Assembly: GCA_003222115.1 (NCBI GenBank) | Contig: QHUL01000069.1 | Location: 12,417-76,416, forward strand | DNA: 64,000 bases | DNA from: Gemmatimonadota bacterium | GTDB taxonomy: Bacteria > Gemmatimonadota > Gemmatimonadetes > Gemmatimonadales > GWC2-71-9 | Direction of reading: 5' to 3' | In this document: positions 10,197 to 48,801 of the stretch, piece after piece | Layout of the letters: each line of letters starts with the position of its first letter | Numbering within the stretch: the stretch's first letter is position 1 | The notes under the pieces: model-generated | Databases searched by the model: none | Told to the model about the DNA's origin: nothing | What the model saw: only the letters and a program-made list of their open reading frames with translations | Translations under genes and position numbers: made by a program

Positions 10197-10210
10197 GAGC
10201 AAGAAGCTAA

Positions 10211-10319
10211 TGCGGAGTGCGGAGTGCGGAGTGCGGAATGCGGAGTGTAATTGGAAGGTCGCACGGGGAAGCGAGGCCCGCATTCACACTCCGCACTCCG
10301 CATTCCGCATTCCGCATTC
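10211..10319. repeat. Tandem-heptamer hairpin (unit TGCGGAR)
   Basis: Left arm 10211-10247 is five units. Right arm 10285-10319 is CAYTCCG units. Loop is about 37 nt. Lies between divergent mtnA and the enoyl-CoA hydratase gene. Confidence 0.9.
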
Positions 10320-31460: not shown

Positions 31461-31490
31461 ACTCCGCATTCCGCACTCCGCATTCCGCAT
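31382..31490. repeat. Tandem-heptamer hairpin (unit TGCGGAR) spanning the 5' end of the M23 gene
   Basis: Left arm 31382-31412 and right arm 31456-31490. Same unit as 10211 and 37174. Confidence 0.9.
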
Positions 31491-35943: not shown

Positions 35944-37173
35944 TCAGCCCGTCATCACGATCACCCCGAGACCCCAGACCAGCGTCAACAGCGTGACCGG
36001 AATGCCGACCCGCGCATACTCCCAGAAGCCGATGTGCACGCCCCGCGTCTCCGCCCGCTCCGCCACGATCAGGTTCGCCATGGAGCCGATCAGGAGCAGG
36101 TTGCCGGCGAACGTGGAGCTCATCGCGACGACCCGCCATACGAGGTGGGGGTCGGGCAGCTGCGGCACCGTATTCCGCCACAGCATCACCGCCGGCACGT
36201 TCGAGATCAGGTTCGAGAGCACGGCCATTACTCCGGTCACGACGCCCGCCACGCTCCACGCCGATCCGGCCTGCACGAGAGCGAGGGCGTGCCGGTCGAT
36301 CCACGCCACCGCCCCGGTCTGTTCGAACCCCCGCATCACGACGAACAGCGACGCGAAGAAGAGCAGCAGGGACCACTCCACCCGGTCGATGGCGTACGCT
36401 GGGTCCCGCTGCGCGATCGCGACCATGAGCGCGCCGGCCGAAATGGCGACGAGCGGGAGCGGGCCGCCGGCGAGCCACGCGACGACGGCCGCCCCGAATA
36501 CCGCCAGGCCCTTCGTGACGAGCGGCCGGTCGAGAACCACCGGCACCGCGGCGAGGCGCTCGCGAAACGGCTCGCGCAACTCCGCGGCGTAGGCCCAGCG
36601 CAACCAGCCGTACGTGATGGCGAGCCCGCCCAGCGCGACCGGCACCATGTGGACCAGGAACCCGCCGAACGTCGCGCCGCTCCAGATCCCGACGAGCATG
36701 TTCTGCGGGTTCCCCGTGACCGAGAGCACGGAGCCGACGTTCGAGCCCATGGCGAGCCCGATGAGGTAGGGGGTCGGCCGCACCCGCAGCGGCCCCAGGG
36801 CGGCGAGCAAGACGGGGGTGACGACGAGGCAGATCGTGTCGTTCACGAACAGCGCCGACAGCAGGCCACCGCCCACCACGATGCCGAGCAGGAGCCGCTG
36901 CGGGGTCGGGGCGCGCTGGAGGATCCATTCGGCGGCCCACTCGAAGAACCTTCCGACCTCGAGGTAGCCGACGACGAGCATCAGGCCCAAGAGGAACACG
37001 AGGACGTCGAAGTCCACGGCGGCGTAGGCGTCGACCAGCGGCAGCACTCCGAAGACGACCATGGCCACGGCGCCGAGCAGGCTCGCCGCCGGTCGGTTGA
37101 GGTGGACGAAGGGGAGCCGCTGAACGGCGATGAGAACGTAGGTAGCGGCGAAGATGACGAGGCCGGTGGTCAT
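35944..37173 (-). CDS. ArsB/NhaD-superfamily permease (citrate transporter-like)
   Basis: ATG 37173. Polytopic. ...LFVNDTICLVVTPV..., VTGNPQNMLV. The track ORF start 37233 lies inside the hairpin and is probably spurious. Confidence 0.75.
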   Translation of the reverse strand: MTTGLVIFAATYVLIAVQRLPFVHLNRPAASLLGAVAMVVFGVLPLVDAYAAVDFDVLVFLLGLMLVVGYLEVGRFFEWAAEWILQRAPTPQRLLLGIVVGGGLLSALFVNDTICLVVTPVLLAALGPLRVRPTPYLIGLAMGSNVGSVLSVTGNPQNMLVGIWSGATFGGFLVHMVPVALGGLAITYGWLRWAYAAELREPFRERLAAVPVVLDRPLVTKGLAVFGAAVVAWLAGGPLPLVAISAGALMVAIAQRDPAYAIDRVEWSLLLFFASLFVVMRGFEQTGAVAWIDRHALALVQAGSAWSVAGVVTGVMAVLSNLISNVPAVMLWRNTVPQLPDPHLVWRVVAMSSTFAGNLLLIGSMANLIVAERAETRGVHIGFWEYARVGIPVTLLTLVWGLGVIVMTG

Positions 37174-37250
37174 GCGAGTGCGGAGTGCGGAATTCGGAAT
37201 GCGGAGTTCCCGCGGAAACTCCGCATTCCGCACTCCGCATTCCGCATTCG
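37174..37250. repeat. Tandem-heptamer hairpin (unit TGCGGAR) filling the GNAT-stop to permease-start gap
   Basis: Left arm 37174-37208, 8-nt loop, right arm 37217-37250. About 80 percent of positions pair by eye. Confidence 0.9.
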
Positions 37251-37251
37251 G

Positions 37252-38220
37252 TCAGATCTCCCAGTTCGAGAACAGCACGCCGTGGGCCGGGGGCTGCTCG
37301 GGGTAGCCGTCCTGGGTCATCCGCAAGTCGGTCCAGCGGACGCGGTAGCCGCGGGCGATGAGGCGGCGGAACGCGTCGGTGTAGCGCGTCTGGCAGCGCA
37401 CGCCGACGCGGCGGATGCCGGCGCGGGCCGCCGCCGCCTCCACGGCCACGATGGCGGCGTCGAACGCCCGCTCGTCGCGCGCGGCCAGCTTGAGGATGCG
37501 CACCTCGTCCTTGGGCCGCCCTTCCGCGAGCGGGGCCGAGTGCCACAGCACCATGGCGCCGAGCCCACCCTGGCCTTCCACCAGGGAGGTGTCGCCCAGC
37601 CCCAGCTCGGCCGTGAGCAGGATCTCGCGCGTGAAGTCGCAGCCGCGCGCCAGTGCCCCGACGAGGTCCCGCACCGCATCGAGGACCTGCGTCTGCGCGC
37701 GGCCCTGCCGCGCCGAGAGCAACACCGGCGGGCGGTGCCCGCGGGTCGCGATGTCGTTCGTCATCGTCACGGTGAGATGTCCGGGGACGAAGCCGACCTG
37801 GGCGTAGAAGCCGATGTTCTCGACGGTGCGCGGCATCGTCTCGAGACCCAGCGTCGTGACGCCCTGCTCGATCAGCCAATCGGCCGCCGCGCGCACGATG
37901 GTCTTGCCCACGCCGCTCCCCTGCCGGTCGGGCCGTACCGCGAGCGGACCCATCCACCCCTCCAGCCCCGACCGGTGCGCGATGTTGAACGCCGCGACCT
38001 GGTCGGTCTCGTCGCGCCACAGCATCGCCCCATCGCCCGCGTCGAGCAGCGCGTAGCGCCACACGTCGGGATTGAGCTGCGGCACGCGCACGCCCACCAG
38101 GCCGTCGCGGCGGTAGCGGTCCGTGAAGGCTTCCGCGAACACCCGGTTCAGCCCGTCGATGTCGCGCTCGCCGGCCCGCTCGGGTCCGTAGACCTGCCGC
38201 TCAGGCAGCCACGCCCGCAT
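37252..38220 (-). CDS. GNAT-family N-acetyltransferase, two-domain
   Basis: ATG 38220 overlaps the sbcC end by 20 nt. LAVRPDRQGSGVGKTIV acetyl-CoA loop. Confidence 0.75.
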   Translation of the reverse strand: MRAWLPERQVYGPERAGERDIDGLNRVFAEAFTDRYRRDGLVGVRVPQLNPDVWRYALLDAGDGAMLWRDETDQVAAFNIAHRSGLEGWMGPLAVRPDRQGSGVGKTIVRAAADWLIEQGVTTLGLETMPRTVENIGFYAQVGFVPGHLTVTMTNDIATRGHRPPVLLSARQGRAQTQVLDAVRDLVGALARGCDFTREILLTAELGLGDTSLVEGQGGLGAMVLWHSAPLAEGRPKDEVRILKLAARDERAFDAAIVAVEAAAARAGIRRVGVRCQTRYTDAFRRLIARGYRVRWTDLRMTQDGYPEQPPAHGVLFSNWEI

Positions 38221-40630
38221 CGCCCGCTCCGAGGATGGCGGTGTCGTCGCGCACTACGCTCGCGCCGCGCGCGGCGTCGTACTCCACCCGGATCACCCGG
38301 TCCAGCCCTTCGCGCACCTGCTCAATGTGCGTGATGAGAATCACCTGGGGGAAGCGGTCCCCCAGGCGGCGCAACAGGGAGACGACGTGCTGGCGGCGGG
38401 ACTCATCGAGCGAGCCGAAGATCTCGTCCAGCACGAGCAACGACAGCGGTTGCCCCGCGCGCTCGGCGATCATCTGGGAGATGGCGAGCCGCAGCACCAG
38501 GTTGGCCACGTCCTCCTCACCGCCTGAGAGCACCGGCTTGGCGATGCCGTCGTCGAGGACGGTGATCACGTAGTCGTCGTTCAGGTCCACGGCCTCGTAG
38601 CGGCCGTCGGTGAGGTCGGCGAGGAAGCCGGAAGCGAGCTCGGCGATTTCGGGCCGCATGGCGGCGTTCAGCTCGCCCCGCAGGTCGGAGAAGGCCTTGT
38701 CGAGCTCGTGGTGCAGCCGCTCCTCGCTTCGCCGTTCCGCGATCTGGCGCTCGCGGGCGGCCCGCTCCCGCTCGCGCCGCTCGACCTCGTGGACGCCCGC
38801 CTCCGCCGCGACGAGCTCACCGCGCGTCTCCGCGACGGCGAGCTCGGCCTCCCGCAGCGCACGCGCCGCCTGGTCGTGCCGCTCCCGCGCCGCGGCGAAC
38901 GCCTGCTCCGAGAACCGCTCCGCCGCTACCGCCGCAGCGAGCTCCTCCGCGCGCCGCTCGTGAGTCGTGAGGGCCTGCTCCGCGAGCTCGGCCTCCCGCA
39001 CCAGGACTTCCGCCCGCTCGGCCCGCGCCGCGAGCTTCGCCGCCTCGAGGACGACGGGTTCGAGCCGGGTGAGCTCGGCCCGCACCGCGTCGTGGCGCTG
39101 CGAGTCGTAGCCGGTGGGGCGGGCGCCAAGCTGGGCCTCGAGGTCCCGAGCCCGCCGCTCCGCCCCCGCCCGCTCCTGCGTCGCGCGGGTGAGCTCCTGC
39201 GCCTGGGCGCGCAGCTCGCCGGCGCGCTCGCTGGCCCGGCGGCTGACGTCCCGCAGGGCGTCCCGCTCGGCCTCGGCCGTCGTCACCGCCGCGGGCGGCT
39301 GGGCCAGCTGCTCCAGCCGCTGGCGGAAAAACTTGCCGTCGTCCACGATGGCCTGCAGCTGCCGGTCGAGGATGCCGAGCACCGCACCGTGCTCCGCCCC
39401 GAGCGGCCGACGGCAGGTCGGGCATTCGCCCTCGGGCCCGAGCAGCTCGATCTTGTCCCGTTGCTCCTTCAGATCGTCGTACTGGCGGAGCAGCTCCGTG
39501 CGGCGGGTCGCCGCGTATTCCTTCTCCCGCACCCACACCGCGCGCTGCTCCGCGGCGGTGCGCTCCGCCGCCTCCAACCGCTGCGCCAGCGCCAGCACCT
39601 CGCGCTCCGCGTCGGCGAGCGTCGCCGTGGCCGTCCGGAGCGCGTCGATGCGGCGGTCCAGGGCGGCCATCGAGCGGCGCAGCTCCTCGAGCTGCCCCTC
39701 GTCGGCACGCCGCGCCGCTTCCTCCTGCTGCAGCCGCTCCAGCTCGCCCAGCTCGCGCTTGAGCCGCTCCACCGGCTCGAGCTCCGGCCCGAGATGCTTG
39801 AGCTGCTCCCGCGCGTTGAGCGCGTCGGCGAGCTCGCGATCGAGCCGCTGGCACTCCTGTCGCGCCACCGTGACGGCCTGGTCGGCCATCCGCCGGTCGC
39901 CGTCCAGCGAGCGCACCCGCTTCTCCCGCTCCACCCATTCCTTCCACTCGGGCTCCACGCGCGCGAACTGACGCTCCGCCGCCGCGCGCTGGCCGTCCGC
40001 CGCCTGCGCCGCGCGTCGCACCTCGTCGAGCCGCGCAGCGGCCGTCGTGCGCTCCGCCTCGAGCCGCGCGCTCTCGGGCAGACCCGCCTCGAGCCCGCGC
40101 AGCTCGCTCGCGAGCGCGTTGCGCCGCTCGCGCACGCGCTCCTGGGCGAGCCGCAGCCGGTCGTACCCCAGCACGCGCGACAGGAACGCCGCCCGGTCCG
40201 TCTTGCCCAGGCTCGCCATCACCGCCAGCTCTTTCTGCCCGGTGAAGTAGGTGTTGAAGAACTCGTCGTGGCGCATCCCCAGGACGCGCTCCAGCCCGGT
40301 CGTGACTTCCGTGAGCGAGTTCGCCACGACGACGCCATCCTGGTACAGCTCGGCGCCGTGGAGCCCCCGCACGACGCGATACTCGTGCGCCCCGAGCCCG
40401 AACTCCAGCTCCACGCGGACGCTCGTGCGCGGCTTCGCCCGCAGGTTACGGATCCCGTCCTTGTCGCCTCGCGCCGCCGCGTTGCCGTAGATCGCCCAGG
40501 CGATCGCCTCGAGCAGCGTCGACTTGCCGGAGCCGTTTGGGCCGATGATACCCGTGATTCCGGGCCCCACCACGATCTCGCAGTCCGCGTACTGCCGGAA
40601 GTTGACGAGGCGCAGCCGGTGCAGCCGCAT
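38201..40630 (-). CDS. sbcC: Rad50/SbcC-family ATPase
   Basis: Walker A GPNGSGKST. Long coiled coil with CPTC zinc hook. LSGGEEDV, LLVLDEIF. Confidence 0.9.
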   Translation of the reverse strand: MRLHRLRLVNFRQYADCEIVVGPGITGIIGPNGSGKSTLLEAIAWAIYGNAAARGDKDGIRNLRAKPRTSVRVELEFGLGAHEYRVVRGLHGAELYQDGVVVANSLTEVTTGLERVLGMRHDEFFNTYFTGQKELAVMASLGKTDRAAFLSRVLGYDRLRLAQERVRERRNALASELRGLEAGLPESARLEAERTTAAARLDEVRRAAQAADGQRAAAERQFARVEPEWKEWVEREKRVRSLDGDRRMADQAVTVARQECQRLDRELADALNAREQLKHLGPELEPVERLKRELGELERLQQEEAARRADEGQLEELRRSMAALDRRIDALRTATATLADAEREVLALAQRLEAAERTAAEQRAVWVREKEYAATRRTELLRQYDDLKEQRDKIELLGPEGECPTCRRPLGAEHGAVLGILDRQLQAIVDDGKFFRQRLEQLAQPPAAVTTAEAERDALRDVSRRASERAGELRAQAQELTRATQERAGAERRARDLEAQLGARPTGYDSQRHDAVRAELTRLEPVVLEAAKLAARAERAEVLVREAELAEQALTTHERRAEELAAAVAAERFSEQAFAAARERHDQAARALREAELAVAETRGELVAAEAGVHEVERRERERAARERQIAERRSEERLHHELDKAFSDLRGELNAAMRPEIAELASGFLADLTDGRYEAVDLNDDYVITVLDDGIAKPVLSGGEEDVANLVLRLAISQMIAERAGQPLSLLVLDEIFGSLDESRRQHVVSLLRRLGDRFPQVILITHIEQVREGLDRVIRVEYDAARGASVVRDDTAILGAGDAGVAA

Positions 40631-41820
40631 CAGCCCGCCTCCCCCGTCGCCTCGCGGCCGACCTGCTCCAGGTACTCGACCCCCAGGCGGACCAACGCCT
40701 CCCGATCGAGCGACGCGTCGAGCGGCCGCCGGCTCAGGAACTCACGCAGCGTGTCGGGCAGCGTGTGGCGCCGCCCGGGGCCGCCGACGCCGACGGTCCG
40801 GCGCTCCTCCGGCCGCCGCACGTCGAGCTGGAAGTTGAGCGCCCGGGACTTGTAGTGACGAATCGCGGCGTGGTCCAGGTCGCGCGCCGTGCCGCGCGAC
40901 ACGTCGTACACGACCAGCCGCACCACCTGGTCCTCGAACGTCGGATCGGCCGCGGCCACGCGCTGCGCGATGCGGGCGTCGAGCTCCTTGGCGCTGAGCC
41001 CCGCCCCCTGGATCGGCGGCAGGTCGACCAGGCGCCGCGATCCGGGGATCGGCCGAAAGGTCGTGCGGGCCCCCGGCAGGTCCACCAGGAGGTAGCCCTT
41101 TCCCGGTCGGCCGTGCTCTGCCTCGTCCTTCAGTTCGCCCCAGGCGTTGGGACTCACGTGCTCCAGGCTCCCCGAGTACCAGGCGTTGGCCGCGACCTCG
41201 TGGCACACGTGATAGTGCCCCAGCGCGACGTAGTCCCACTGCGCGGGCGCGAGGTCCTGGGTGGTGAGCAGAGCCCCGCCGTACTCCGCCGCGCTGCGGT
41301 CCCCGCCGATCACACCCTCCACCTCGCCGTGCACCAGCAGCACGTTGCGCGTCGTGGCGTCACGCCGCTCGGGCCGCAGCGCCGGTCGCTCCTCGCTCAG
41401 GAGCGCCTGGTGGGGCACCGCGAGGACCGAGCAGTCCAGTTTCGGGAACACGATGCGGCGCGCCCGTTCGATCACGACTTCGACCCCGAGCGCCTCGTAC
41501 AGACGCAGGATCGTCCCGGTCTCGACCGAGCGGGGCGTGTCGTGATTGCCGGCGATCAGCACGACGGGGGTCTCCGGGAGCGCCACGCGCACGCGCTGCA
41601 GCTCCCGGAACAGGAACAGGATCGCCGGGTTGGTGGGGCGGACGGAGTGGAAGATGTCCCCGGCGAGGAGGATCAAGTCCGGGCGCTGCGCCACGAGGTC
41701 GTCCACGGCGCGGCGGAACGCGTCCGCCACGTCGACCTCGCGCTGATTGCCGCCCCGCGCCGTCTGCCGGTCGTACTGGCGGAAGCCGAGGTGGAGGTCG
41801 GCGAGGTGGGCGAGCTTCAC
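40630..41820 (-). CDS. sbcD: Mre11/SbcD-family nuclease
   Basis: DLHLG, GDIFH, GNHD, LGHYH phosphoesterase motifs. Stop overlaps the sbcC ATG. Confidence 0.9.
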   Translation of the reverse strand: MKLAHLADLHLGFRQYDRQTARGGNQREVDVADAFRRAVDDLVAQRPDLILLAGDIFHSVRPTNPAILFLFRELQRVRVALPETPVVLIAGNHDTPRSVETGTILRLYEALGVEVVIERARRIVFPKLDCSVLAVPHQALLSEERPALRPERRDATTRNVLLVHGEVEGVIGGDRSAAEYGGALLTTQDLAPAQWDYVALGHYHVCHEVAANAWYSGSLEHVSPNAWGELKDEAEHGRPGKGYLLVDLPGARTTFRPIPGSRRLVDLPPIQGAGLSAKELDARIAQRVAAADPTFEDQVVRLVVYDVSRGTARDLDHAAIRHYKSRALNFQLDVRRPEERRTVGVGGPGRRHTLPDTLREFLSRRPLDASLDREALVRLGVEYLEQVGREATGEAG

Positions 41821-41824
41821 GGGC

Positions 41825-42697
41825 TCACTTTCGGTCGGTGAGCTCGAGGGAAGTCCTCTGCTCCAGCGCCATCGTCATCCCGGCCGGGCCGAGCTGACCC
41901 CCGCTCGCGGTGATGCGCATCGTTCCGCTCATCGTCGAGCCGAGCGGTGCCCCTTTCGACACCGAGAACTGCCGCTCGCCCGTCAGCGTGCCGGAAAACC
42001 GCAGCGTGGAGGTCTGCCCCTGCTGGGTGACCGTGACGGGGTCGGTCGGGAACGACGTCTCCACCGCGAGCACGACGGTGGTGTCGGCGCCCGCGATCTG
42101 GAGCTGCTTCACGGTCAACTTGCTCTTCGCCTTGAGCGGCGCGCTCGTACTCACGATCTGGGAGATGGGCAGCTCCGTCTCCGACGTCCAGGAGTCACCG
42201 ACCCCCACCGGCTCGGTGGGCAGCGGGAACGCCATGTTCTTGACGCTCTTCGCCATCTGGTCGGTGATCGGCGAGGGCGTCCCGGCCACCCCGCGGAACT
42301 CGGCCCGCACGACGTTCATGCGGTCGTCGTACACGATCGTGCTGGTGAGGCCGCGCATCCGGTCGAGGGCCGGCTTCATCGCGTCGGGACCCATCATCGG
42401 CGACTCGAGCGTCGTGGAGTCGAACTTCACGGTGACGCCGATGCCCCCCTCCGTCGGCCCGGCCACGGATTGGGTGTAGTACATCCGCATCGTGAACGCC
42501 TGGCCCGGCATCCGCGCCATCGGCCCCGTCTCGAACTTGATGGAGTTCTGCTGCTCGAGCCGGTAGCGGTAGGCCGCGCCCGCCGGGGGATGGAACCGGA
42601 GCGCGATTTTGGGCCCGCTCGCCCTGTCGCAGCCCGTCGAGGCGAGCAGGCCGGCGAGGGCGAAGGGGCGGGCGGCGGTCATGAGCGCTCCGGGCAT
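41825..42697 (-). CDS. Putative lipoprotein of unknown function
   Basis: ATG 42697 overlaps the herA stop. FALAGLLASTGC signal and lipobox-like sequence. Beta-rich, no nucleic-acid motifs. Confidence 0.6.
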   Translation of the reverse strand: MPGALMTAARPFALAGLLASTGCDRASGPKIALRFHPPAGAAYRYRLEQQNSIKFETGPMARMPGQAFTMRMYYTQSVAGPTEGGIGVTVKFDSTTLESPMMGPDAMKPALDRMRGLTSTIVYDDRMNVVRAEFRGVAGTPSPITDQMAKSVKNMAFPLPTEPVGVGDSWTSETELPISQIVSTSAPLKAKSKLTVKQLQIAGADTTVVLAVETSFPTDPVTVTQQGQTSTLRFSGTLTGERQFSVSKGAPLGSTMSGTMRITASGGQLGPAGMTMALEQRTSLELTDRK

Positions 42698-44655
42698 CAG
42701 TAGGGTTCCTCCGATATCGGATTGAGCGGCGGCACGACGTGGCGCGGCCGCGGCGCCGCCGGCGCGATGCGGGTGCCCAGCGCCTTCCGGAAATACGCCA
42801 GAGCGTCCTCCGGCCGCGCGCGCCGCACCCCAGCCAGGGCGCGCCGTACATCCTCCGCCGTGCGATCGGTGATCAAGTCCTTGACCTGGTTCGGCCGGAT
42901 GCGCCGATCCAGCTGCACCAACTGGCGGACGACGGCGTCCTCGAACGGCAGGTCGGCCGCCGGCGGGAAGCGCTCCACGCCGTCCCGGCCGCGCAGCGGC
43001 GCGGGCCGCGGAAAGCGCACGAAGATGGGTTGGGTGAAGTGCGGGTGACGCACCATCAGCTCACCGATCGGCAGCGTGGCGAGCTTGATCTTGGTCGCGG
43101 GCGAGAGCACCTGATAGCCCGGCGTGGCCAGCTCGTCCATGTCCATGCGACCGTACACCAGCGTGCCCGCGTTGCCCACGATGCGCCGGTGCACCTGCGA
43201 GCGAAACTGCTCCGCCCCGAACAGCACCAGGCCCAGGTACCGTCCCCGCTCCGAGATGTCGAGCAGCATCTTCTTCACGTACGTCTCGGGACCGTCGGCG
43301 GGGGCGTACTTGTTCAACTCGTCGACGAACACCACGACCGCGTCCACACCCAGGTCGCGTCGCTCGAGGTGCTCGCGCAGCTTCGATACGACGCGCGCAA
43401 AGACGAGGTCCTGGCCGAGTGGGTCCACGTTTGCCACGTCCACGACGTACACCGTGCGGTCCTGGAGCTCGCCCCAGGGCAGATCGTTCGAGGGGCCGTC
43501 GTCCGTGACCAGCCCCTTGCAGCGGGTCGAGATGTTGGCGAGGCGGTTGCGCACCTTGCGGATGGTGGCGATGTGATGGGTGCGCCACATGTCGCTCCGT
43601 CCCGTCGCCTCGAGCCCGTCGAAGATCGCCCGGAAGAGCGCGTCGAGATCCGCGAAGTTTTGCACGCGGTGCTGCCGGCCGAAGCCGTCGTCGAACTCCT
43701 TGTTGAGCACCCGGTCGGCGAGAAAGTCGATGAACGCGTCGGCCTTGGCGTCGATGTCGTCGCGGTTGAGGAGCACCTCGGCGAAGTCCAGGACCTCCTG
43801 CAGGCCCCACACCAGCGCGTCCACGTCGCTCACCAGATCGGGATGGGTGCGCAGCGTGTTGAGGTTCACGCCGTCCGCCTTGAACGGCGCGAAGTAGCGC
43901 ACGCGCTCGAACGGGCGCGGCTCGACGTCCAGCCGCGCGTAGCGGCGCCGGTCTTCCGCGTCCAGCTCGCCCGGCCGGTCGAGGAAGCAGAGGTCGGGCC
44001 CCTTCACATTGAAGCACACCGCGGCGATGCGTCCCTTGTGGGCGGGAAAATGCCGGAACACGGACGCGAGCAGGAACTCGACGGCGCTCGTCTTGGTCGC
44101 CAGCCCCGAGACACCGGAGATGTTCAAGTGCGCCGCCTCGGGGCCCAGCAGGAAGTCGGCGTCGAGGTAGACCGGCGCCTCCAGTCCGCCCGAGGTGTAG
44201 AGGCCGATCGGGATCGGCGTGGGCTGCGCTCCGCCCACATACGCATCCATCCGCAGGGCCTGCGCCACGTCAGCGTCGCCCGCCACGTGCACCTGACCGA
44301 GCGGCACGGGTTGGAGCGGCTCCTCCGGGATCTGCCGCAGCACCGCCGCGGTCCACAGCCGAATCTCCTGGCGCACGGTCGGCGCCTCCGCCGCGCGCGC
44401 CGGGTCCCCTTCGGCACCCACGACGTCGTGGAGCGGAGTGGCCAGGTCCGAATAGGCGAACCCGTCCGTCACGACGCCGTACACTACACGCCCTACGCCC
44501 AACGCCCCACGCTCCGACGCTTCGACCCGGACGATGGCCCCGATACCGATGGTGGTTTCGTTCGCAGTCCAGAAGTGGAACTGGTGCGGCGTCGCCGGCT
44601 TCAGCTCGGTGGCGACGACGCGGCCGACTGGAATAGGACGGCTCTTGTCGATCAT
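42697..44655 (-). CDS. herA: HerA-like (DUF87) ATPase
   Basis: ATG 44655 overlaps the nurA stop. HAS-barrel-like N-terminus. P-loop region ISGVSGLATKTS and Walker B VVVFVDELNKY. Confidence 0.75.
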   Translation of the reverse strand: MIDKSRPIPVGRVVATELKPATPHQFHFWTANETTIGIGAIVRVEASERGALGVGRVVYGVVTDGFAYSDLATPLHDVVGAEGDPARAAEAPTVRQEIRLWTAAVLRQIPEEPLQPVPLGQVHVAGDADVAQALRMDAYVGGAQPTPIPIGLYTSGGLEAPVYLDADFLLGPEAAHLNISGVSGLATKTSAVEFLLASVFRHFPAHKGRIAAVCFNVKGPDLCFLDRPGELDAEDRRRYARLDVEPRPFERVRYFAPFKADGVNLNTLRTHPDLVSDVDALVWGLQEVLDFAEVLLNRDDIDAKADAFIDFLADRVLNKEFDDGFGRQHRVQNFADLDALFRAIFDGLEATGRSDMWRTHHIATIRKVRNRLANISTRCKGLVTDDGPSNDLPWGELQDRTVYVVDVANVDPLGQDLVFARVVSKLREHLERRDLGVDAVVVFVDELNKYAPADGPETYVKKMLLDISERGRYLGLVLFGAEQFRSQVHRRIVGNAGTLVYGRMDMDELATPGYQVLSPATKIKLATLPIGELMVRHPHFTQPIFVRFPRPAPLRGRDGVERFPPAADLPFEDAVVRQLVQLDRRIRPNQVKDLITDRTAEDVRRALAGVRRARPEDALAYFRKALGTRIAPAAPRPRHVVPPLNPISEEPY

Positions 44656-45641
44656 GACCCCGTCTTCGGGAGGCGGGACCCGGCCGCCGGGAGCAGGTCC
44701 CTTGGCGCGCGGCTCCGCAGGTAGGTCTCCACGTCGTGTATAGGATACAACAGGCGGTCCCAGCGCGCGTCGGGCGTGGAGACCGGGGCGCGCTCGCGCA
44801 GCAGCCATCCGGACAGCGCCGTGGCCTGCGCGACGCTCGCGGGGTGGGGGCGCGCCTCGATACGGAGCAGCCCGTAGAGCAGGTCGTTGCCCTGCCACGG
44901 CCACAGCCGCAGATACCAGGAGTACACCGGTTGGTGCTGGTGCCCCAAGGGCCGAAACGCGCTGGTCCGGTGGTCGGCCGGCACGGTGAGCGCGCGCTCG
45001 AGCGCCGCGCCTTCAAAGTATTGCGCGCCGTGGCTCTTGATCACGCCCAGCACCCGTGGATGCTCGGCGAGCACGCGGGACTCGGACAGGAGGCCGTCCA
45101 CGACGAGCCACTCCTCCGGGCCGAGCCGCCCGGCGCAACGCTCACCCAGCTCCCGCTCCACGTCCTCGCGCGCGCGATCCACGCGCCCGTGCGCCGCGCG
45201 CAGCGCCCTGCCCGGCTGCCCCGTCTCGTCCGCCGCGAGATCGACGATCTCCACGCCGGCCTCCTCGAGCGCGCGGCGCACGGGCGCAGACAGGGCCGCG
45301 AGCCGGGTGATCACGAGCTCGCGCGTCGCTTCGTCCGCGGTCCGCGGCCGGCGGTCGGGCCCGCGCCGCCGTACGGCCGCCGCGACGTGGGCGCGCACGA
45401 TCGGCGTCGCGCCGTCATAGCCTACGACGGCCCACCGCTGGATGCCGTCCAGGAACGAAATCACGGGGCCCGGCGCGGCCGCGAGGGGGACCGGGTGCAG
45501 CTCGAGGGCCGCTCCTTCCACCAGCTCCGCCCCTGCGGGCTCGAGCGCGTCGCTGCGACCCGTGCTCGCCTCCGGCACGTAGGCCGCCCGCACCGCTCCG
45601 GCGGCGACGATCGCCTCGGTCCAACGTCGGGGCGGCGTCAT
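44652..45641 (-). CDS. nurA: NurA-like nuclease
   Basis: FLDGIQR, LVVDGLLS, VIKSHG, WYLRL, LYPIHDVETYL follow the order of NurA motifs. Directly coupled to herA. Confidence 0.6.
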   Translation of the reverse strand: MTPPRRWTEAIVAAGAVRAAYVPEASTGRSDALEPAGAELVEGAALELHPVPLAAAPGPVISFLDGIQRWAVVGYDGATPIVRAHVAAAVRRRGPDRRPRTADEATRELVITRLAALSAPVRRALEEAGVEIVDLAADETGQPGRALRAAHGRVDRAREDVERELGERCAGRLGPEEWLVVDGLLSESRVLAEHPRVLGVIKSHGAQYFEGAALERALTVPADHRTSAFRPLGHQHQPVYSWYLRLWPWQGNDLLYGLLRIEARPHPASVAQATALSGWLLRERAPVSTPDARWDRLLYPIHDVETYLRSRAPRDLLPAAGSRLPKTGS

Positions 45642-46345
45642 CGCGTCCGCAGCGCCCAGCCGATGTAGCTCACGCTGAGATCGTCCGTCAGCTGGGGAAA
45701 CCCCTTCATCTCCTGCACCACGAGGTCGTTCCGGCCCAGCCGCTCCGCCAGCTCCTCCGGCGTGACGAACCGCGCGAACTCGTGGAACCCCTGGGGCAAG
45801 GTCTGGTGGACGTACTCCTCCTCCCAGATCAGCCGCAGGAACGCCGCGATCGTGCGGTTGTGGGTGACGAACCCGAGTCCGCCGCCCGGTGCCAGCACGC
45901 GGGAGATCCCGGCGATCGCGCTCTCGAGGTCGTCCACGTGCTCCAGGACGTCGGTCGCGAAGACGAGATCGAAGTGGCCGGCGAAGTTGCCCGCCACCAA
46001 GCTCTCGGCGGTTGCCGATCTGTAGTCAATGGTCAGCCCGGACTGCGCGGCGTGCTCGCGGGCCACGGCCAGCGATTTCTGCGACGGGTCGATCCCCGTG
46101 ACATTGGCCCCTTCCGCCGCGAGCGACTCGGCGAGGATGCCGCCGCCCGAGCCGACGTCCAGAACGCGCTTCCCCCGGAAGCCGCCGAGCACGCTCCGAA
46201 AGTACGCGACGCGGGCGACGTTCAGCTGGTGCAACCCCGCAAGAGGGCTCGCACTGCCCCACCACAGATCGGGGATCCGCTGGAGCAGGCGATCGTACTT
46301 GTCGGGCACCGCAAGTCCTTCGAGCCGCGGGAGTTGACCGCTCAT
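45638..46345 (-). CDS. ubiG: UbiG-like class I SAM-dependent O-methyltransferase
   Basis: LWWG...LHQLN, VLDVGSGGGILAE, VTGIDPS, DVLEHVDD, LPQGFHEF...TPEEL. Confidence 0.65.
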   Translation of the reverse strand: MSGQLPRLEGLAVPDKYDRLLQRIPDLWWGSASPLAGLHQLNVARVAYFRSVLGGFRGKRVLDVGSGGGILAESLAAEGANVTGIDPSQKSLAVAREHAAQSGLTIDYRSATAESLVAGNFAGHFDLVFATDVLEHVDDLESAIAGISRVLAPGGGLGFVTHNRTIAAFLRLIWEEEYVHQTLPQGFHEFARFVTPEELAERLGRNDLVVQEMKGFPQLTDDLSVSYIGWALRTR

Positions 46346-46974
46346 CCGGAGACCTTCACGCCCACCACGAGGCCGTCCCGGATCGGCACGGCGGCGGCAA
46401 CGACGCGCGGGTCCGTCGCCGCCAGGCGGTTGAAGGCGCGCACCCCCTCGGCGTCCGGGCTCGTGTCCGTGGGATCCACGACCGCGCCATGGAAGAACGC
46501 GTTGTCGCACAGCAGCAACCCACCGTCACGCAGCAGCTTGAGGCTCCACTCGAAATATTGCGGCAGCGGCGCCTTGTCGGCGTCCAGGAAGACCGCGTCG
46601 AACCCAGGGGTGAGCGTGGGGAGGAGGTCGAGTGCCGACCCTTCGAGCAGCTGCACTCGCGGCGCCACGCCCGCTTCGGCGTAGGCCCGGCGCGCCAACG
46701 CGGCGTGGCGCGGGTCTTTCTCGATGGTCGTGAGACGACCGTGCGGCGGCAGCGCGCGGGCCAGCCACACGCCGGAATATCCCGCGAGCGCCCCGAGCTC
46801 CAGCACGCGCGTCGCGCCCACGGCGCGTAGCAGCACGTGGAGCAACTTCCCCTCGTCGGCGGAGATGTAAATGGCGGGCAAGCCGAGCGCCTCGTGCCGC
46901 GCCCGGATGGCGGCGAGGACAGCATCTTCAGGGGCGAACAGCTCGGTGGTGTAGCGCGCGAGCCGCTCGTCCAC
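46342..46974 (-). CDS. Family-3 O-methyltransferase (caffeoyl-CoA OMT-like)
   Basis: GTG 46974 lies just after the upstream stop. VLELGALAGYS, TIEKDP, FDAVFLDADK, GGLLLCDN. Confidence 0.7.
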   Translation of the reverse strand: MDERLARYTTELFAPEDAVLAAIRARHEALGLPAIYISADEGKLLHVLLRAVGATRVLELGALAGYSGVWLARALPPHGRLTTIEKDPRHAALARRAYAEAGVAPRVQLLEGSALDLLPTLTPGFDAVFLDADKAPLPQYFEWSLKLLRDGGLLLCDNAFFHGAVVDPTDTSPDAEGVRAFNRLAATDPRVVAAAVPIRDGLVVGVKVSG

Positions 46975-46976
46975 GC

Positions 46977-47492
46977 TCAGGCGGTGACCTCGACGTTCGG
47001 GAAGGGGGGCACCTCCAAGAACCACAAGCCGGCGAGGCGCGACTGCTTGTCCAGCTCGACGAGGACGTGGTCGGCGATGCGCACGACCATCGCGGCGCGC
47101 GTTCGCCCCACCCGGATGTGCAGCACGGACTCGGTGTGGTTCTTCTCGACTGTGAGCGCCGTGTCCACCTCAACCGCGGCCACGTTCGGTTGCGACTTGC
47201 GGCTCGCGAAGACGACGCGGCCTTCCTTCGTGGGCTCCGGCACCACCAGCGCGTCGACGGTGCGGACGTCGTCCGGCCAGCTGACCACTTCCACGCCGCG
47301 CAGCACGCCGCCCGCCACGTCGAGCAGCACGAAGGACCCGTCGTCGCCCTCCAGGTCCACCGTCCCGTTGAGCCCGCTCGCCTTCGCCACGCCCTTGCAG
47401 GCCACCGAGAGAATGTCGGTCTCGGGGTCCCAGCGATAGCTGACCTTGGGGAGCTTCCCGTCGAGTGGTTCGATGCGTGTCTCGAAGCTCAT
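46977..47492 (-). CDS. Hypothetical protein (DUF2283-like YxxDxExDxL segments)
   Basis: ATG 47492. VSYRWDPETDILSV. First gene of the long minus-strand operon. Confidence 0.45.
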   Translation of the reverse strand: MSFETRIEPLDGKLPKVSYRWDPETDILSVACKGVAKASGLNGTVDLEGDDGSFVLLDVAGGVLRGVEVVSWPDDVRTVDALVVPEPTKEGRVVFASRKSQPNVAAVEVDTALTVEKNHTESVLHIRVGRTRAAMVVRIADHVLVELDKQSRLAGLWFLEVPPFPNVEVTA

Positions 47493-47527
47493 GCGGACGT
47501 CGCCTTCCTGTGGTACGGGAGGGGGGG

Positions 47528-47534
47528 TAATATA
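47528..47534. promoter_or_regulatory. AT-rich TAATATA island in the divergent promoter region
   Basis: The only AT-rich hexamers in the 70-nt gap between divergent starts 47492 and 47563. Candidate -10 boxes on both strands. Confidence 0.25.
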
Positions 47535-47562
47535 GGCGCCACCTCCGAGGGGGGCTAGGACG

Positions 47563-48801
47563 ATGGAGCGGCGGGAGTTCTTGATGGTAGCCGGGGCGGT
47601 CGCGGCGGCGTGGCCAACGCGGAAGGCGGAAGTCGGAACGCGGAACTGGGAGCCGGACGACTCGTTCCGCGTTCCGCGTTCCACGTTCCGCGTTGCCCCC
47701 ACCCAGGAGCCCGCCCTCTCCCGCGACGTCTTCGCCCGCCGGCTCGCCCGGGCCCAGCAGGAGCTGCAGGCGCGCAAGACCGATCTCCTCATTGCCACGC
47801 CGGGGACGAACTACGAGTACCTCACGGGCTACAACCCCGGCCGCAGCGAGCGGCTGATCGCGCTGCTCCTCCCCGCCAGGGGCGACCCCACGATCGTCTG
47901 CCCCAGCTTCGAGGTCGAGCGGATCCGGCAGCACAGCGTGGTGGCCGCCACCCGCGGCTGGGAGGAGCAGGACGACCCCTACCGCCTGGTGCGGCAGGCG
48001 GTCCGGGAGATGAGGCTCAGCGCGCGGGCCGTGGCGCTGGAATCGACCACCGCCTACGCCGTCGCCTTGCGGCTCGCGGAGGCCCTTGGCGGGAAATTCG
48101 CGGATGCCGCCCCGATCACCGATCGGCTGCGCATCATCAAATCCCCCGAAGAGGTCGCGCTGATCCGTCAGGCCATCGACATCACGGAGGCGGCGATCGC
48201 CGCGACGTTCGCGAAGCTCGCGGCGGGCGCGAGCGAGCGGGAGGTGGCCCAGCTGCTGTCGGGTGAGATGCGGCAGCGCGGCGCCGAGGGAGGCGGCCTG
48301 GTCCAGTTCGGGCCCTCCAGCGCGCTGCCGCACGGCGGGCCCGGCGGCCCGACGCTGGCGCGGGAGATGGTGGTGCTGATCGACTGCGGATGTCGCGTCG
48401 CCGGCTACACGTCCGACATCACGCGCACGACGTGGTTCGGGGACTCCCCGGTGCCGGAGTTCACGCAGGTGTTCAACCTGGTGCACGACGCGCAGACGGC
48501 CGCCATGCAGCAGCCCCCGCTCACGCCATGCCAGGAGATGGACCGGGTGGCGCGCCGCGTGATCGCGCAGGGCGGCTTCGGCCCCTTCTTCACCCACCGC
48601 CTTGGCCACGGCATGGGCCTGGACGGTCACGAGCCCCCCTACCTCGTGGAAGGCAACGCCACGCCGCTCGAGCCCGGCATGGTGTTCACCATCGAGCCGG
48701 GGATCTACCAGCTCGGCAAGTTCGGCGTACGGATCGAGGACGATTGCGTGATGACCGAACGCAACATCGAGGTTCTATCTCACAGAGCGGCCAAGCTCTA
48801 A
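47563..48801 (+). CDS. M24-family Xaa-Pro peptidase with Tat-type signal
   Basis: MERREFLMVAGAVAAAW. DCGCRVAGYTSDITRT, HRLGHGMGLDGHE, EPGIY, RIEDD. No usable start codon downstream of the internal hairpin. Confidence 0.85.
   Translation: MERREFLMVAGAVAAAWPTRKAEVGTRNWEPDDSFRVPRSTFRVAPTQEPALSRDVFARRLARAQQELQARKTDLLIATPGTNYEYLTGYNPGRSERLIALLLPARGDPTIVCPSFEVERIRQHSVVAATRGWEEQDDPYRLVRQAVREMRLSARAVALESTTAYAVALRLAEALGGKFADAAPITDRLRIIKSPEEVALIRQAIDITEAAIAATFAKLAAGASEREVAQLLSGEMRQRGAEGGGLVQFGPSSALPHGGPGGPTLAREMVVLIDCGCRVAGYTSDITRTTWFGDSPVPEFTQVFNLVHDAQTAAMQQPPLTPCQEMDRVARRVIAQGGFGPFFTHRLGHGMGLDGHEPPYLVEGNATPLEPGMVFTIEPGIYQLGKFGVRIEDDCVMTERNIEVLSHRAAKL
47616..47694. repeat. Tandem-heptamer hairpin (units CGCGGAA/GGCGGAA/GTCGGAA) inside the M24 CDS
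   Basis: Arms 47616-47646 and 47664-47694, about 27 of 31 complementary. Translated as TRKAEVGTRNWEPDDSFRVPRSTFRV. Confidence 0.9.

Follow-up and report, generated by a model that had tools for sequence, protein, structure and literature searches.

The window, the 64,000-nt stretch of DNA analysed here, carries a minus-strand gene cluster from a soil-type, mesophilic Gemmatimonadales bacterium (phylum Gemmatimonadota) that encodes NurA, HerA, Mre11 and Rad50. The locus is probably a chromosomal, vertically inherited operon whose most likely product is a double-strand-break end-resection machine. It comprises nurA (44652–45641; a 329-aa bacterial-type nuclease with an RNase H-like fold), herA (42697–44655; a 652-aa ATPase/translocase of the HerA family, within its bacterial, NurA-associated clade), a gene for a DUF6263-family predicted lipoprotein (41825–42697; 290 aa), mre11/sbcD (40630–41820; a 396-aa Mre11-family phosphoesterase nuclease) and rad50/sbcC (38201–40630; an 809-aa Rad50-type SMC-like ABC ATPase). 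Gene calls made independently on metagenome contigs of identical sequence give the five minus-strand reading frames of the original prediction the same boundaries. Its overlapping start and stop codons can be read directly from the sequence: nurA and herA share ATGA (4-nt overlap, 44655–44652), whereas herA and the lipoprotein gene, and mre11 and rad50, each meet in TGATG (1-nt overlaps at 42697 and 40630, respectively). The single exception is a 4-nt gap (GCCC) between the lipoprotein gene and mre11, which starts with GTG at 41820. We place the herA start at ATG 44655, not at the head of a longer GTG reading frame from 44904, as this fits the N-termini of homologues.

Taken alone, the NurA protein has no match above threshold in Pfam, NCBIfam or PDB sequences, and none in PADLOC. 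Its AlphaFold2 model (pLDDT 82.6, pTM 0.82) matches 7f6d_G, the Deinococcus radiodurans NurA (drNurA), with an E-value of 1.5e-12, and 1zup, the Thermotoga NurA (TmNurA), with 5.5e-10 in Foldseek; these two solved bacterial NurAs are the only full-length matches (probability 1.00). A family profile built from 72 diverse relatives likewise reaches drNurA (4e-9) and TmNurA (5.3e-9), and 13 of the 72 match Pfam NurA. These relatives show little or no variation at D65, E162 and D182, which align in the profile to D49, E140 and D157, the catalytic residues of TmNurA (PMC3300031). We therefore propose D65, E162 and D182 as the predicted catalytic residues, with E283, D291, D303 and E305 as candidates for a fourth acidic or histidine position. 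Fold, profile and aligned D-E-D set all identify the 329-aa protein as the expected NurA. That it is instead no functional NurA but an RNase H-fold protein that has degenerated or is unrelated, with the HerA-like ATPase serving another partner, would agree with the lack of direct sequence matches and with a Foldseek TM-score of 0.57 to drNurA at 17% identity. We regard this as very improbable, given the exclusive structural matches, the profile E-values, the conserved acidic triad and the fact that nurA always adjoins herA in our survey of Gemmatimonadota loci.

HerA is recognized by its similarity to D. radiodurans HerA (7f6d_B, phmmer E-value 2e-41), which supports the identity of the herA-like gene. 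Its profile matches the same protein at 2e-61, the only HerA in the PDB that it detects. The Walker A motif (G181-VSGLATKT-189, with K188/T189) has a deviant form common to the D. radiodurans protein, as is the Walker B motif (V444-DELN, with D445/E446); the counterparts there are K175/T176 and D487/E488 (PMC9960219). The protein has no match in Pfam or NCBIfam, and its structure prediction is poor (pLDDT 50). Identity to other HerAs is 69–96% within Gemmatimonadota and 51–63% across phyla.

The assignments of Mre11 and Rad50 rest on complete motif sets and on profile matches, as had been predicted. Mre11 contains D8-L-H-L-G, G54-D-I-F, G91-N-H-D, V163-H-G and G201-H-Y-H and matches Pfam Metallophos (4.5e-13), and Rad50 contains a Walker A motif (G30-PNGSGKS), a zinc hook (C403-PTC406), the signature S702-GGE, a Walker B motif (L732-VLDE) and an H-loop (I766-TH). 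Pfam detects SMC_N, AAA_23 and SbcC_Walker_B in Rad50, with Rad50_zn_hook below threshold (16.6 bits, cut-off 24.3). For both proteins the archaeal NCBIfam models outscore the bacterial SbcCD models (Mre11_Sulfo 82 bits versus sbcd TIGR00619 76.1 bits, cut-off 77.65; archaeal Rad50 PRK03918 185.8 bits versus sbcc TIGR00618 101 bits), although none of the scores comes close to the archaeal equivalog cut-offs. The best PDB matches of Mre11 are the Pyrococcus furiosus and Methanocaldococcus jannaschii proteins, then that of Thermotoga maritima; those of Rad50 are M. jannaschii (7e-31), P. furiosus (1e-25) and T. maritima (2e-23). By sequence, both proteins are of a short type resembling their archaeal and Thermotoga counterparts. 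The label "archaeal-style" first given to this locus thus holds for the gene set and partly for Mre11 and Rad50, but not for HerA and NurA: both are bacterial in type and match D. radiodurans or Thermotoga structures and none from archaea.

The gene string is packed beyond these five genes. At the nurA end, the stop codon of a class-I SAM-dependent methyltransferase gene (Methyltransf_11/UbiE-like; 45638–46309, minus strand, 223 aa) shares 4 nt with the nurA start (ATGA); this gene lies 5′ of nurA in about 17 of 80 surveyed loci, all close relatives. At the rad50 end, the start of a GNAT-family acetyltransferase gene (37252–38220, minus strand, 322 aa; Pfam Acetyltransf_1, 2.5e-11, with only weak PDB matches, to RimI-like GNATs) overlaps the end of rad50 by 20 nt. 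It follows rad50 in 47 of the 48 Gemmatimonadota loci with enough flank, and is missing there in L006, a 33%-GC metagenome-assembled genome; it is a lineage-specific conserved companion and counts as a fifth cluster gene in Gemmatimonadota. Immediately behind the GNAT stop codon, two tandem arrays of the heptamer [A/G]TGCGGA in inverted orientation (37178–37247, strand not assigned) form a long and very stable hairpin with a predicted RNA folding energy of -57.8 kcal/mol (z = -9.5). The same kind of element follows the GNAT gene in locus L044, and the hairpin is a probable 3′ boundary of the gene string, either a terminator or a REP-like element.

The lipoprotein, by comparison, is probably a passenger. 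It has a signal peptide and a lipobox (A-S-T-G-C23) and matches Pfam DUF6263 at 27 bits (cut-off 26.7). Across 74 loci, the slot between herA and mre11 falls into three length classes (0–200 nt, about 0.82–0.94 kb, or at least 1.65 kb); the lipoprotein gene is missing in L001, L006, L007 and L009, and unrelated genes occupy the slot at other loci, such as Nramp in L070. Because this junction accepts unrelated inserts, the two halves of the operon need not be strictly co-translated.

We surveyed synteny in 80 Gemmatimonadota genomes, counting over loci with evaluable flanks, and found the cluster in nearly all of them. HerA is preceded by NurA in 69 of 71 evaluable loci and followed by Mre11–Rad50 in 65 of 67, and the identities of the four proteins to those of the window co-vary across loci (r = 0.84–0.97). 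The same order occurs outside the phylum in an Armatimonadota locus (L009), in L006 and in a 58%-GC contig (L007), while versions with true SbcCD, mostly plasmid-borne, occur in Cyanobacteria, Chloroflexota and Actinomycetota; in all, the cluster is present in at least four bacterial phyla besides Gemmatimonadota. Since one order recurs in 65–69 of about 70 Gemmatimonadota loci and in other phyla, the arrangement is not a product of chance. The novelty claimed for a bacterial operon of HerA/NurA with SbcCD is weakened by this commonness and by the nurA-herA-sbcD-sbcC adjacency reported in Oceanithermus profundus (Blesa et al. 2017, PMC5448004), although we found no published description of the cluster for Gemmatimonadota.

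In the resection model, a Mre11 nuclease dimer and a Rad50 ABC-ATPase dimer, joined by the CPTC zinc hook, would recognize and clean DNA ends. A HerA hexameric translocase would then feed the duplex into a NurA dimer, whose RNase H-like sites (D65, E162, D182) may digest the 5′ strand, leaving a 3′ tail for RecA. We infer complex formation, substrate polarity, co-transcription and a role in recombinational repair from the archaeal system and from D. radiodurans NurA–HerA, which performs translocation-coupled 5′ resection (PMC9960219); archaeal HerA–NurA is reported to work together with Mre11–Rad50 (PMC3326311, PMC5715905). The role of bacterial NurA–HerA is disputed, as deletions in Deinococcus and Thermus cause modest changes in damage resistance or even improve it (PMC9960219), and a 2026 study argues for digestion of both strands by archaeal HerA–NurA, with a possible antiviral function (PMC12977600).

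This antiviral proposal, together with the known defence systems that combine HerA with Sir2 or DUF4297 effectors, raises the alternative of anti-phage or anti-plasmid defence, with HerA–NurA as motor-nuclease and Rad50–Mre11 as SMC-like sensor destroying linear or foreign DNA instead of mending the chromosome. Distant nurA-herA-sbcD-sbcC relatives are indeed plasmid-borne, those of Chlorohelix (L091) and Streptomyces (L092) lie near genes for a TIR-domain protein, ImmA/IrrE or Wadjet-like components, and in PADLOC Rad50 matches mad3 and LmuB, both SMC-like ATPases of defence systems. These Rad50 matches are, however, of the generic ABC-head kind expected of any Rad50; PADLOC gives HerA one weak match (mad8, 4e-5), and the HerA profile misses the Sir2- and DUF4297-associated HerAs in the PDB. 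Unlike a defence island, the cluster is nearly universal among the genomes sampled, and three loci of distinct lineages (NurA 38–100% identical) share its syntenic housekeeping neighbours (thymidine kinase, HU, DbpA, an aminotransferase and an M24 peptidase). Its GC content equals that of the window, no transposase or integrase lies beside it in the window, and HerA has a single relative among 2.9 million viral contigs. The earlier caveat of a defence role was thus reasonable but finds poor support at this locus, and we consider such a role unlikely here.

We assign a similarly low probability to nurA-herA and mre11-rad50 being independent neighbouring modules in separate pathways. Examples of such pathways are SbcCD-like hairpin cleavage for one module and, for the other, a partnership of HerA–NurA with RecJ or a part in DNA transfer or segregation. 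A slot that takes the DUF6263 lipoprotein, Nramp or inserts of 1.7–3.9 kb would suit this reading, as would the unlinked pairs of Deinococcus and Thermus (PMC5448004) and the reported ties of HerA-family ATPases to DNA transfer and partitioning (PMC5365140, PMC2588523). Against it, archaeal Mre11 is reported to interact physically with HerA (PMC2288612), and the four-gene linkage recurs in Gemmatimonadota, Armatimonadota, Cyanobacteria, Chloroflexota, Actinomycetota and Oceanithermus. That the linkage is found with two Mre11/Rad50 types and in two gene orders argues for selection on the association.

As a set, the four genes are most familiar from thermophilic archaea (Sulfolobus, Pyrococcus), which carry a herA-mre11-rad50-nurA operon, as reported by Constantinesco et al. 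(2004). The window has the same four functions in one co-directional cluster, and its Rad50 is short (809 aa) with a CxxC hook, as in archaea. The typical archaeal order is herA-mre11-rad50-nurA, whereas that of the window is nurA-herA-(insert)-mre11-rad50; archaeal HerA and NurA structures are detected neither by its sequence profiles nor by Foldseek, and its host is a mesophilic soil-type bacterium and not a thermophile. Sir2–HerA and DUF4297–HerA anti-phage systems also pair a HerA-family hexameric ATPase gene with an adjoining nuclease or effector gene, but the partner in the window is NurA, the context is core-genome and no PADLOC system matches. The clusters of Cyanobacteria, Chloroflexota and Actinomycetota (L090, L091, L092, L093 and L094) tightly link the same four families, with E-values of 1e-14 to 7e-29 for the NurA profile and of about 1e-54 to 1e-71 for that of HerA. 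They differ in having true bacterial SbcD and SbcC (in L090–L092, SbcC of 1006–1117 aa scores 144–285 bits with TIGR00618), in a HerA only 24–33% identical to that of the window, in their mostly plasmid location, and, in actinomycetes, in the order herA-sbcD-sbcC-nurA. The closest solved relatives are D. radiodurans NurA and HerA (7F6D, 7WRW/7WRX; PMC9960219), which share with the window proteins the HerA motifs G-x-S-G-x-A-T-K-T and DELNKYAP, a similar NurA size (about 330 aa) and a nurA-then-herA operon. That pair is not beside sbcCD, its NurA is about 17% identical, and the window NurA and HerA escape Pfam and NCBIfam models. In O. profundus, a thermophile of the Deinococcota, SbcD and SbcC homologues lie directly 3′ of nurA-hepA(herA), a cluster mentioned solely as a synteny observation and explicitly read as an archaeal-like architecture for double-strand-break repair (Blesa et al. 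2017, PMC5448004). With the arrangement present in other bacteria and in this one earlier report, the Gemmatimonadota locus therefore extends a known theme.

On the minus strand of the window, where G+C is about 70% throughout, nurA (329 aa, 44652-45641), herA (652 aa, 42697-44655), a lipoprotein gene (290 aa, 41825-42697), mre11 (396 aa, GTG start, 40630-41820) and rad50 (809 aa, 38201-40630) form one cluster, in which nurA, herA, mre11 and rad50 are co-directional and tightly spaced with a single unrelated gene, that for the lipoprotein, interposed. The five open reading frames coincide exactly with the coordinates of the original prediction, and independent gene calls of identical metagenomic contigs place the same boundaries. 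The overlapping start and stop codons and the lone 4-nt gap that it described are seen directly in the sequence: nurA and herA share ATGA, TGATG joins herA to the lipoprotein gene and also mre11 to rad50, and the gap GCCC separates the lipoprotein gene from the GTG start of mre11.

The packed gene string extends past the limits first drawn for it, with methyltransferase genes at one end and a GNAT gene at the other. Three same-strand genes with gaps of at most 33 nt lie upstream of nurA (45638-47492): a UbiE-like class-I methyltransferase gene (223 aa, 45638-46309) that overlaps the nurA start by 4 nt, a caffeoyl-CoA-type O-methyltransferase gene (46342-46974; Methyltransf_3, 4e-43) and a gene for a 171-aa protein without a Pfam match (46977-47492). 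Because the latter two continue the string upstream, it starts at the divergent intergenic region near 47500. Downstream, a minus-strand GNAT acetyltransferase gene (322 aa, 37252-38220) overlaps the end of rad50 by 20 nt, and directly after its stop codon lies a 70-nt palindrome of [A/G]TGCGGA heptamers (37178-37247; fold -57.8 kcal/mol, z = -9.5), a plausible 3′ boundary of the string. Tandem heptamers of this kind (4-6 copies) and their reverse complement form very long intergenic hairpins here and at 10210-10317 and 31382-31490; ATGCGGAATGCGGA, with up to 2 mismatches, has 22 matches in the window against 0.5 expected, and the GNAT gene of another locus (L044) has a similar element after it. 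In this lineage the hairpins probably represent a terminator or a REP-like element. Scans of 36000-48500 returned 0 sigma-70 promoters and intrinsic terminators at chance level, both scans being uninformative for this phylum.

The window NurA alone has no match in Pfam (none even at E 10), NCBIfam, PADLOC or the PDB, missing the gathering threshold of the Pfam NurA family (PF09376), and a profile of its close homologues was also matchless in the same kind of searches. We built an AlphaFold2 model from 30 homologues (mean pLDDT 82.6, pTM 0.82), for which the only significant full-length Foldseek matches, among those listed, were Deinococcus radiodurans NurA (drNurA, 7f6d_G; E 1.5e-12, probability 1.00, TM 0.57) and the Thermotoga maritima NurA homologue TM1739 (TmNurA, 1zup; E 5.5e-10, TM 0.55-0.61). 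Argonaute PIWI domains came next at E ~0.01, as an RNase H-like fold would lead one to expect, and no archaeal NurA entry was recognisable among the 50 matches listed. Searching 1.84 billion representatives with a profile recovered 789 relatives; 72 varied members of full length, which share 26-61% identity with the window protein, were aligned to represent the family. The resulting profile reaches drNurA (4e-9) and TmNurA (5.3e-9) in the PDB, and 13 of the 72 members match PF09376 directly (best 4.8e-7).

Across the aligned members E162 and D182 never vary, and D65 hardly does. Window residues D65, E162 and D182 align with D61, E152 and D169 of the TmNurA chain, which after subtraction of a 12-residue tag correspond to Asp49, Glu140 and Asp157, the conserved active-site residues of TmNurA according to Chae et al. 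(PMC3300031). The fourth metal ligand (Glu280 in TmNurA, His411 in PfNurA) falls outside the aligned region, and E283, D291, D303 and E305 are conserved candidates for it in the window protein. Fold, profile and catalytic residues converge on a bacterial-type NurA as the predicted identity of the 329-aa protein. The prediction would have been undermined by a protein that did not model as NurA or lacked the catalytic set; the fold match, the profile and the aligned D-E-D residues point the other way.

The window HerA has no Pfam or NCBIfam family match even at E 10; some of its orthologues carry the JGI label 'DNA helicase HerA-like ATPase'. It matches D. radiodurans HerA (drHerA, 7f6d_B) at 2e-41, residues 10-263 aligning with 15-273 and 400-562 with 443-603, so that homology to a characterised HerA spans the barrel at the N-terminus as well as the RecA-like ATPase domain. 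The two proteins have an unusual Walker A in common (NISGVSGLATKTS in the window, NISGISGVATKTS in drHerA), and their Walker B motifs read VDELNKYAP and LDELNKYAP, respectively. The shared Walker alignment places window K188/T189 and D445/E446 on drHerA K175/T176 and D487/E488, which are needed for ATPase activity (PMC9960219), and these window residues are invariant across phyla. When a cross-phylum HerA profile was compared with the PDB, drHerA was the only match (2e-61), and archaeal HerA and the HerA proteins of Sir2-HerA and DUF4297-HerA all went undetected. An AlphaFold2 model of HerA was of low confidence (pLDDT 50.1), the 20-sequence alignment of close homologues being too shallow. On a 2.47-Mb Gemmatimonadales contig (L001, 10984-12940), herA is called as only 444 aa, a 620-nt uncalled stretch follows nurA and tblastn reaches just 68% of HerA; the short herA probably stems from a frameshift or another error of the long-read assembly, or is a pseudogene.

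The Mre11 carries all five phosphoesterase motifs (DLHLG, GDIF, GNHD, VHG and GHYH, residues 8-204) and matches Pfam Metallophos at 4.5e-13. It scores 76.1 bits on NCBIfam sbcd (TIGR00619), just under the cut-off of 77.65, and 82 bits on Mre11_Sulfo against a cut-off of 500; it is a clear homologue outside every curated equivalog. The Rad50 has a bipartite ABC ATPase head, the two parts of which flank a long insert with a CxxC zinc hook, with Walker A GPNGSGKS at residues 30-37, zinc hook CPTC at 403-406, signature SGGE at 702-705, Walker B LVLDE at 732-736 and H-loop ITH at 766-768. It passes the Pfam cut-offs of SMC_N and SbcC_Walker_B and reaches 16.6 bits on Rad50_zn_hook, below the cut-off of 24.3; on the archaeal Rad50 model PRK03918 it scores 185.8 bits (cut-off 700) and on bacterial sbcc TIGR00618 101 bits (cut-off 478.5). 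Scores of the two proteins are otherwise all far below the equivalog cut-offs. The best PDB matches of both are P. furiosus and Methanocaldococcus jannaschii proteins, followed by those of T. maritima; no chain named SbcC occurs among the Rad50 matches at E <= 1e-8, and all chains named SbcD rank under archaeal Mre11. By these comparisons the window Mre11 and Rad50 lean to archaeal relatives and would constitute a separate clade of short Rad50/Mre11 rather than archaeal orthologues. Fold, profiles and motifs together bear out the gene assignments originally made.

Linkage of these genes is a regular feature of the sampled genomes of the phylum. We surveyed by tblastn the 80 best genome matches of a HerA alignment scan, all Gemmatimonadota metagenome-assembled genomes (MAGs). 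Among evaluable loci, nurA, which adjoins herA through the ATGA overlap in the window, precedes herA in 69 of 71, and 65 of 67 have mre11 and rad50 downstream of herA. Across 56 complete loci the identities of the four proteins to their window counterparts co-vary (r = 0.84-0.97), as expected if they are inherited together as a unit; constraint is strongest on HerA (69-96% identity) and weakest on NurA (40-92%). Three loci whose NurA proteins are 38-100% identical to that of the window have flanks in common: genes for a thymidine kinase, a DbpA helicase and an aminotransferase lie upstream in all three, those for HU and an M24 peptidase occur in two, and an O-methyltransferase gene upstream and a GNAT gene downstream are also present. 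The G+C content of the cluster is that of the window, and only one distant HerA relative was found among 2.9 million viral contigs (IMG/VR). The Gemmatimonadota cluster is a core-genome locus, not an island; given its matching G+C, its conserved flanks and the single IMG/VR relative, we rejected a phage-borne origin and a recent horizontal acquisition. A nurA-herA pair, likewise of this bacterial type, is carried by a temperate Thermotogae virus, Marinitoga camini virus 1 (KP836355.1, 4927-7635), and by the viral contig IMGVR_UViG_3300010393_000011 (6902-9707). Neither has an adjacent mre11-rad50 pair; on the latter, just a weak Mre11-like match lies ~2.7 kb away on the opposite strand.

The product of the interposed gene (290 aa) carries a signal peptide that ends in A-S-T-G-C23, and it matches Pfam DUF6263 marginally (27 bits, cut-off 26.7). 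In 74 Gemmatimonadota loci the distance between herA and mre11 is trimodal, at 0-200 nt (no gene between), ~0.82-0.94 kb and >=1.65 kb; the middle class has the size of the DUF6263 gene, a relative of which is found there by tblastn in about 27 of 80 loci. We read this lipoprotein gene as a passenger. Unrelated genes also occupy junctions of the cluster in some Gemmatimonadota: in one locus (L070, 4657-5748) an Nramp (Mn2+/Fe2+) transporter gene lies between herA and mre11, and its position beside Mn-dependent nucleases may be coincidence; in L082 (6320-7975) and three similar loci a gene for a glycerol-3-phosphate-oxidase-like FAD enzyme lies between nurA and herA. In 47 of 48 Gemmatimonadota loci the GNAT gene immediately follows rad50; it is absent from that place in an other-phylum cluster (L006). 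Only the N-terminal half of its product matches known GNATs, weakly (RimI-like), and the enzyme may be a partner of the repair proteins, or their regulator, specific to this lineage. The UbiE-like methyltransferase gene next to nurA is confined to close relatives (about 17 of 80 surveyed loci), and an O-methyltransferase gene is also found upstream in two distant relatives (L001 and L008). These upstream genes prompted us to consider a MADS-like methylation-associated system, which was rejected since the enzymes are of small-molecule O- and UbiE-like types and the nurA-adjacent one is so restricted in distribution.

Beyond Gemmatimonadota, the order nurA, herA, mre11, rad50 occurs on a 33%-GC NCBI MAG contig (L006) and a 58%-GC contig (L007), both with a short, archaeal-leaning Rad50 (812-816 aa; 213-250 bits on PRK03918). 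This order is repeated on a MAG contig of Armatimonadota (L009), whose rad50 is cut by the contig end and so unscored; one more distant NurA representative bears an Armatimonadota name. In a second flavour, found in PLSDB, genes for NurA-like and HerA-like proteins cluster with those for true SbcD and SbcC. The NurA-like proteins match the NurA profile at E 1e-14 to 7e-29, and in the three cases run against NCBIfam (L090-L092) SbcC is 1006-1117 aa long and scores 144-285 bits on TIGR00618. These cassettes are borne by Sphaerospermopsis and Aulosira plasmids (Cyanobacteria), a Candidatus Chlorohelix plasmid (Chloroflexota; L091, NZ_CP128402.1, 1-13176), a Streptomyces linear plasmid (L092, NZ_CP134205.1, 1-14447) and an 11.85-Mb Nonomuraea record, which PLSDB names 'plasmid I' and which, judging from its size, is presumably a chromosome. 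Both actinomycete cases have the order herA-sbcD-sbcC-nurA. ImmA/IrrE metallopeptidase genes adjoin the Chlorohelix and Streptomyces cassettes; the former is also near genes for a TIR-domain protein and a Ser/Thr kinase, and the latter near Wadjet-like TIGR02680, TIGR02678 and DUF2397 genes. These surroundings look like defence islands, unlike the Gemmatimonadota locus.

The best-supported reading of the window cluster is a putative machine for processing the ends of double-strand breaks (DSBs). Mre11-Rad50 would bind and trim DNA ends, a HerA hexamer would translocate duplex DNA into a NurA dimer, and NurA would degrade the 5′ strand to leave a 3′ tail for RecA. This resection model is the established one for NurA-HerA of D. 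radiodurans (PMC9960219) and for its archaeal counterpart. Protein identities, motifs, codon overlaps and conserved linkage are observed in the sequence itself; the complexes, polarity and physiology of the window cluster we infer. It could be argued that nurA-herA and mre11-rad50 are two unrelated modules that happen to be neighbours, as the lipoprotein gene interposed between them might suggest at first sight, but their linkage recurs with two types of Mre11/Rad50, in two gene orders and in several phyla, and we regard mere proximity as improbable.

The main rival to end processing is a role in defence, which plasmid-borne relatives and the current debate on HerA-NurA support. In PADLOC-DB 2.0, which includes Sir2-HerA, Lamassu, MADS and others, there was no specific match, however: NurA had none, HerA matched only mad8 (4e-5) and Rad50 only generic SMC/ABC-head models. 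The locus belongs to the core genome and is near-universal in the sampled genomes, and a signature gene in a variable island, as expected of a defence system, is not seen, the flanks being conserved housekeeping genes. A defence function is thus unlikely here. Within the end-processing reading, a bolder version is possible, and we offer it tentatively: the cluster could be an ancient, vertically inherited bacterial resection machine, pairing bacterial-type NurA/HerA with short archaeal-like Mre11-Rad50, shared with Armatimonadota and low-GC lineages, serving as the main DSB resection pathway of these phyla in place of RecBCD, AddAB or AdnAB, with the GNAT as a lineage-specific regulator. If so, the Mre11-Rad50/HerA-NurA partnership would not be an archaeal speciality moved to Deinococcus-Thermus by horizontal transfer, and would instead be a widespread, largely unannotated bacterial system.

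A whole mesophilic soil phylum keeps the four genes as one core-genome operon, and related cassettes occur in at least 5 other phyla. Two of the four are missed by standard annotation: NurA and HerA have no Pfam or NCBIfam match and appear as 'hypothetical' or 'ATP-binding protein'. With this locus one can ask in a bacterial setting whether Mre11-Rad50 hands DNA ends to HerA-NurA and whether HerA-NurA serves repair or defence, questions still debated for archaea too. Conceptually the step forward is modest, since known homologues supply the mechanism and Oceanithermus had already shown the synteny; the moderate interest of the locus lies in two key genes invisible to annotation and in a test system for both questions.

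Literature searches on this cluster found nothing on Gemmatimonadota. A 2026 paper treats the herA-nurA operon of bacteria as peculiar to Deinococcus-Thermus, with archaea as its likely source, presents bacterial HerA-NurA as unlinked to Mre11-Rad50 and raises an antiviral role for the pair (PMC12977600). Synteny of nurA-herA with sbcD-sbcC had already been seen in Oceanithermus (Blesa et al., PMC5448004). With this precedent, near-universal presence in the Gemmatimonadota sample and occurrence in other phyla, the cluster is less unusual than first supposed. Compared with the archaeal herA-mre11-rad50-nurA operon, the window cluster has the same four-gene set, co-directional and tight. The window HerA and NurA differ from the archaeal proteins and match bacterial structures only (drHerA; drNurA and TmNurA), whereas Mre11 and Rad50 lean to archaeal models yet score far below their equivalog cut-offs. 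The label 'archaeal-style' therefore suits the gene set and the flavour of Mre11 and Rad50, but not HerA and NurA, which are of bacterial type.
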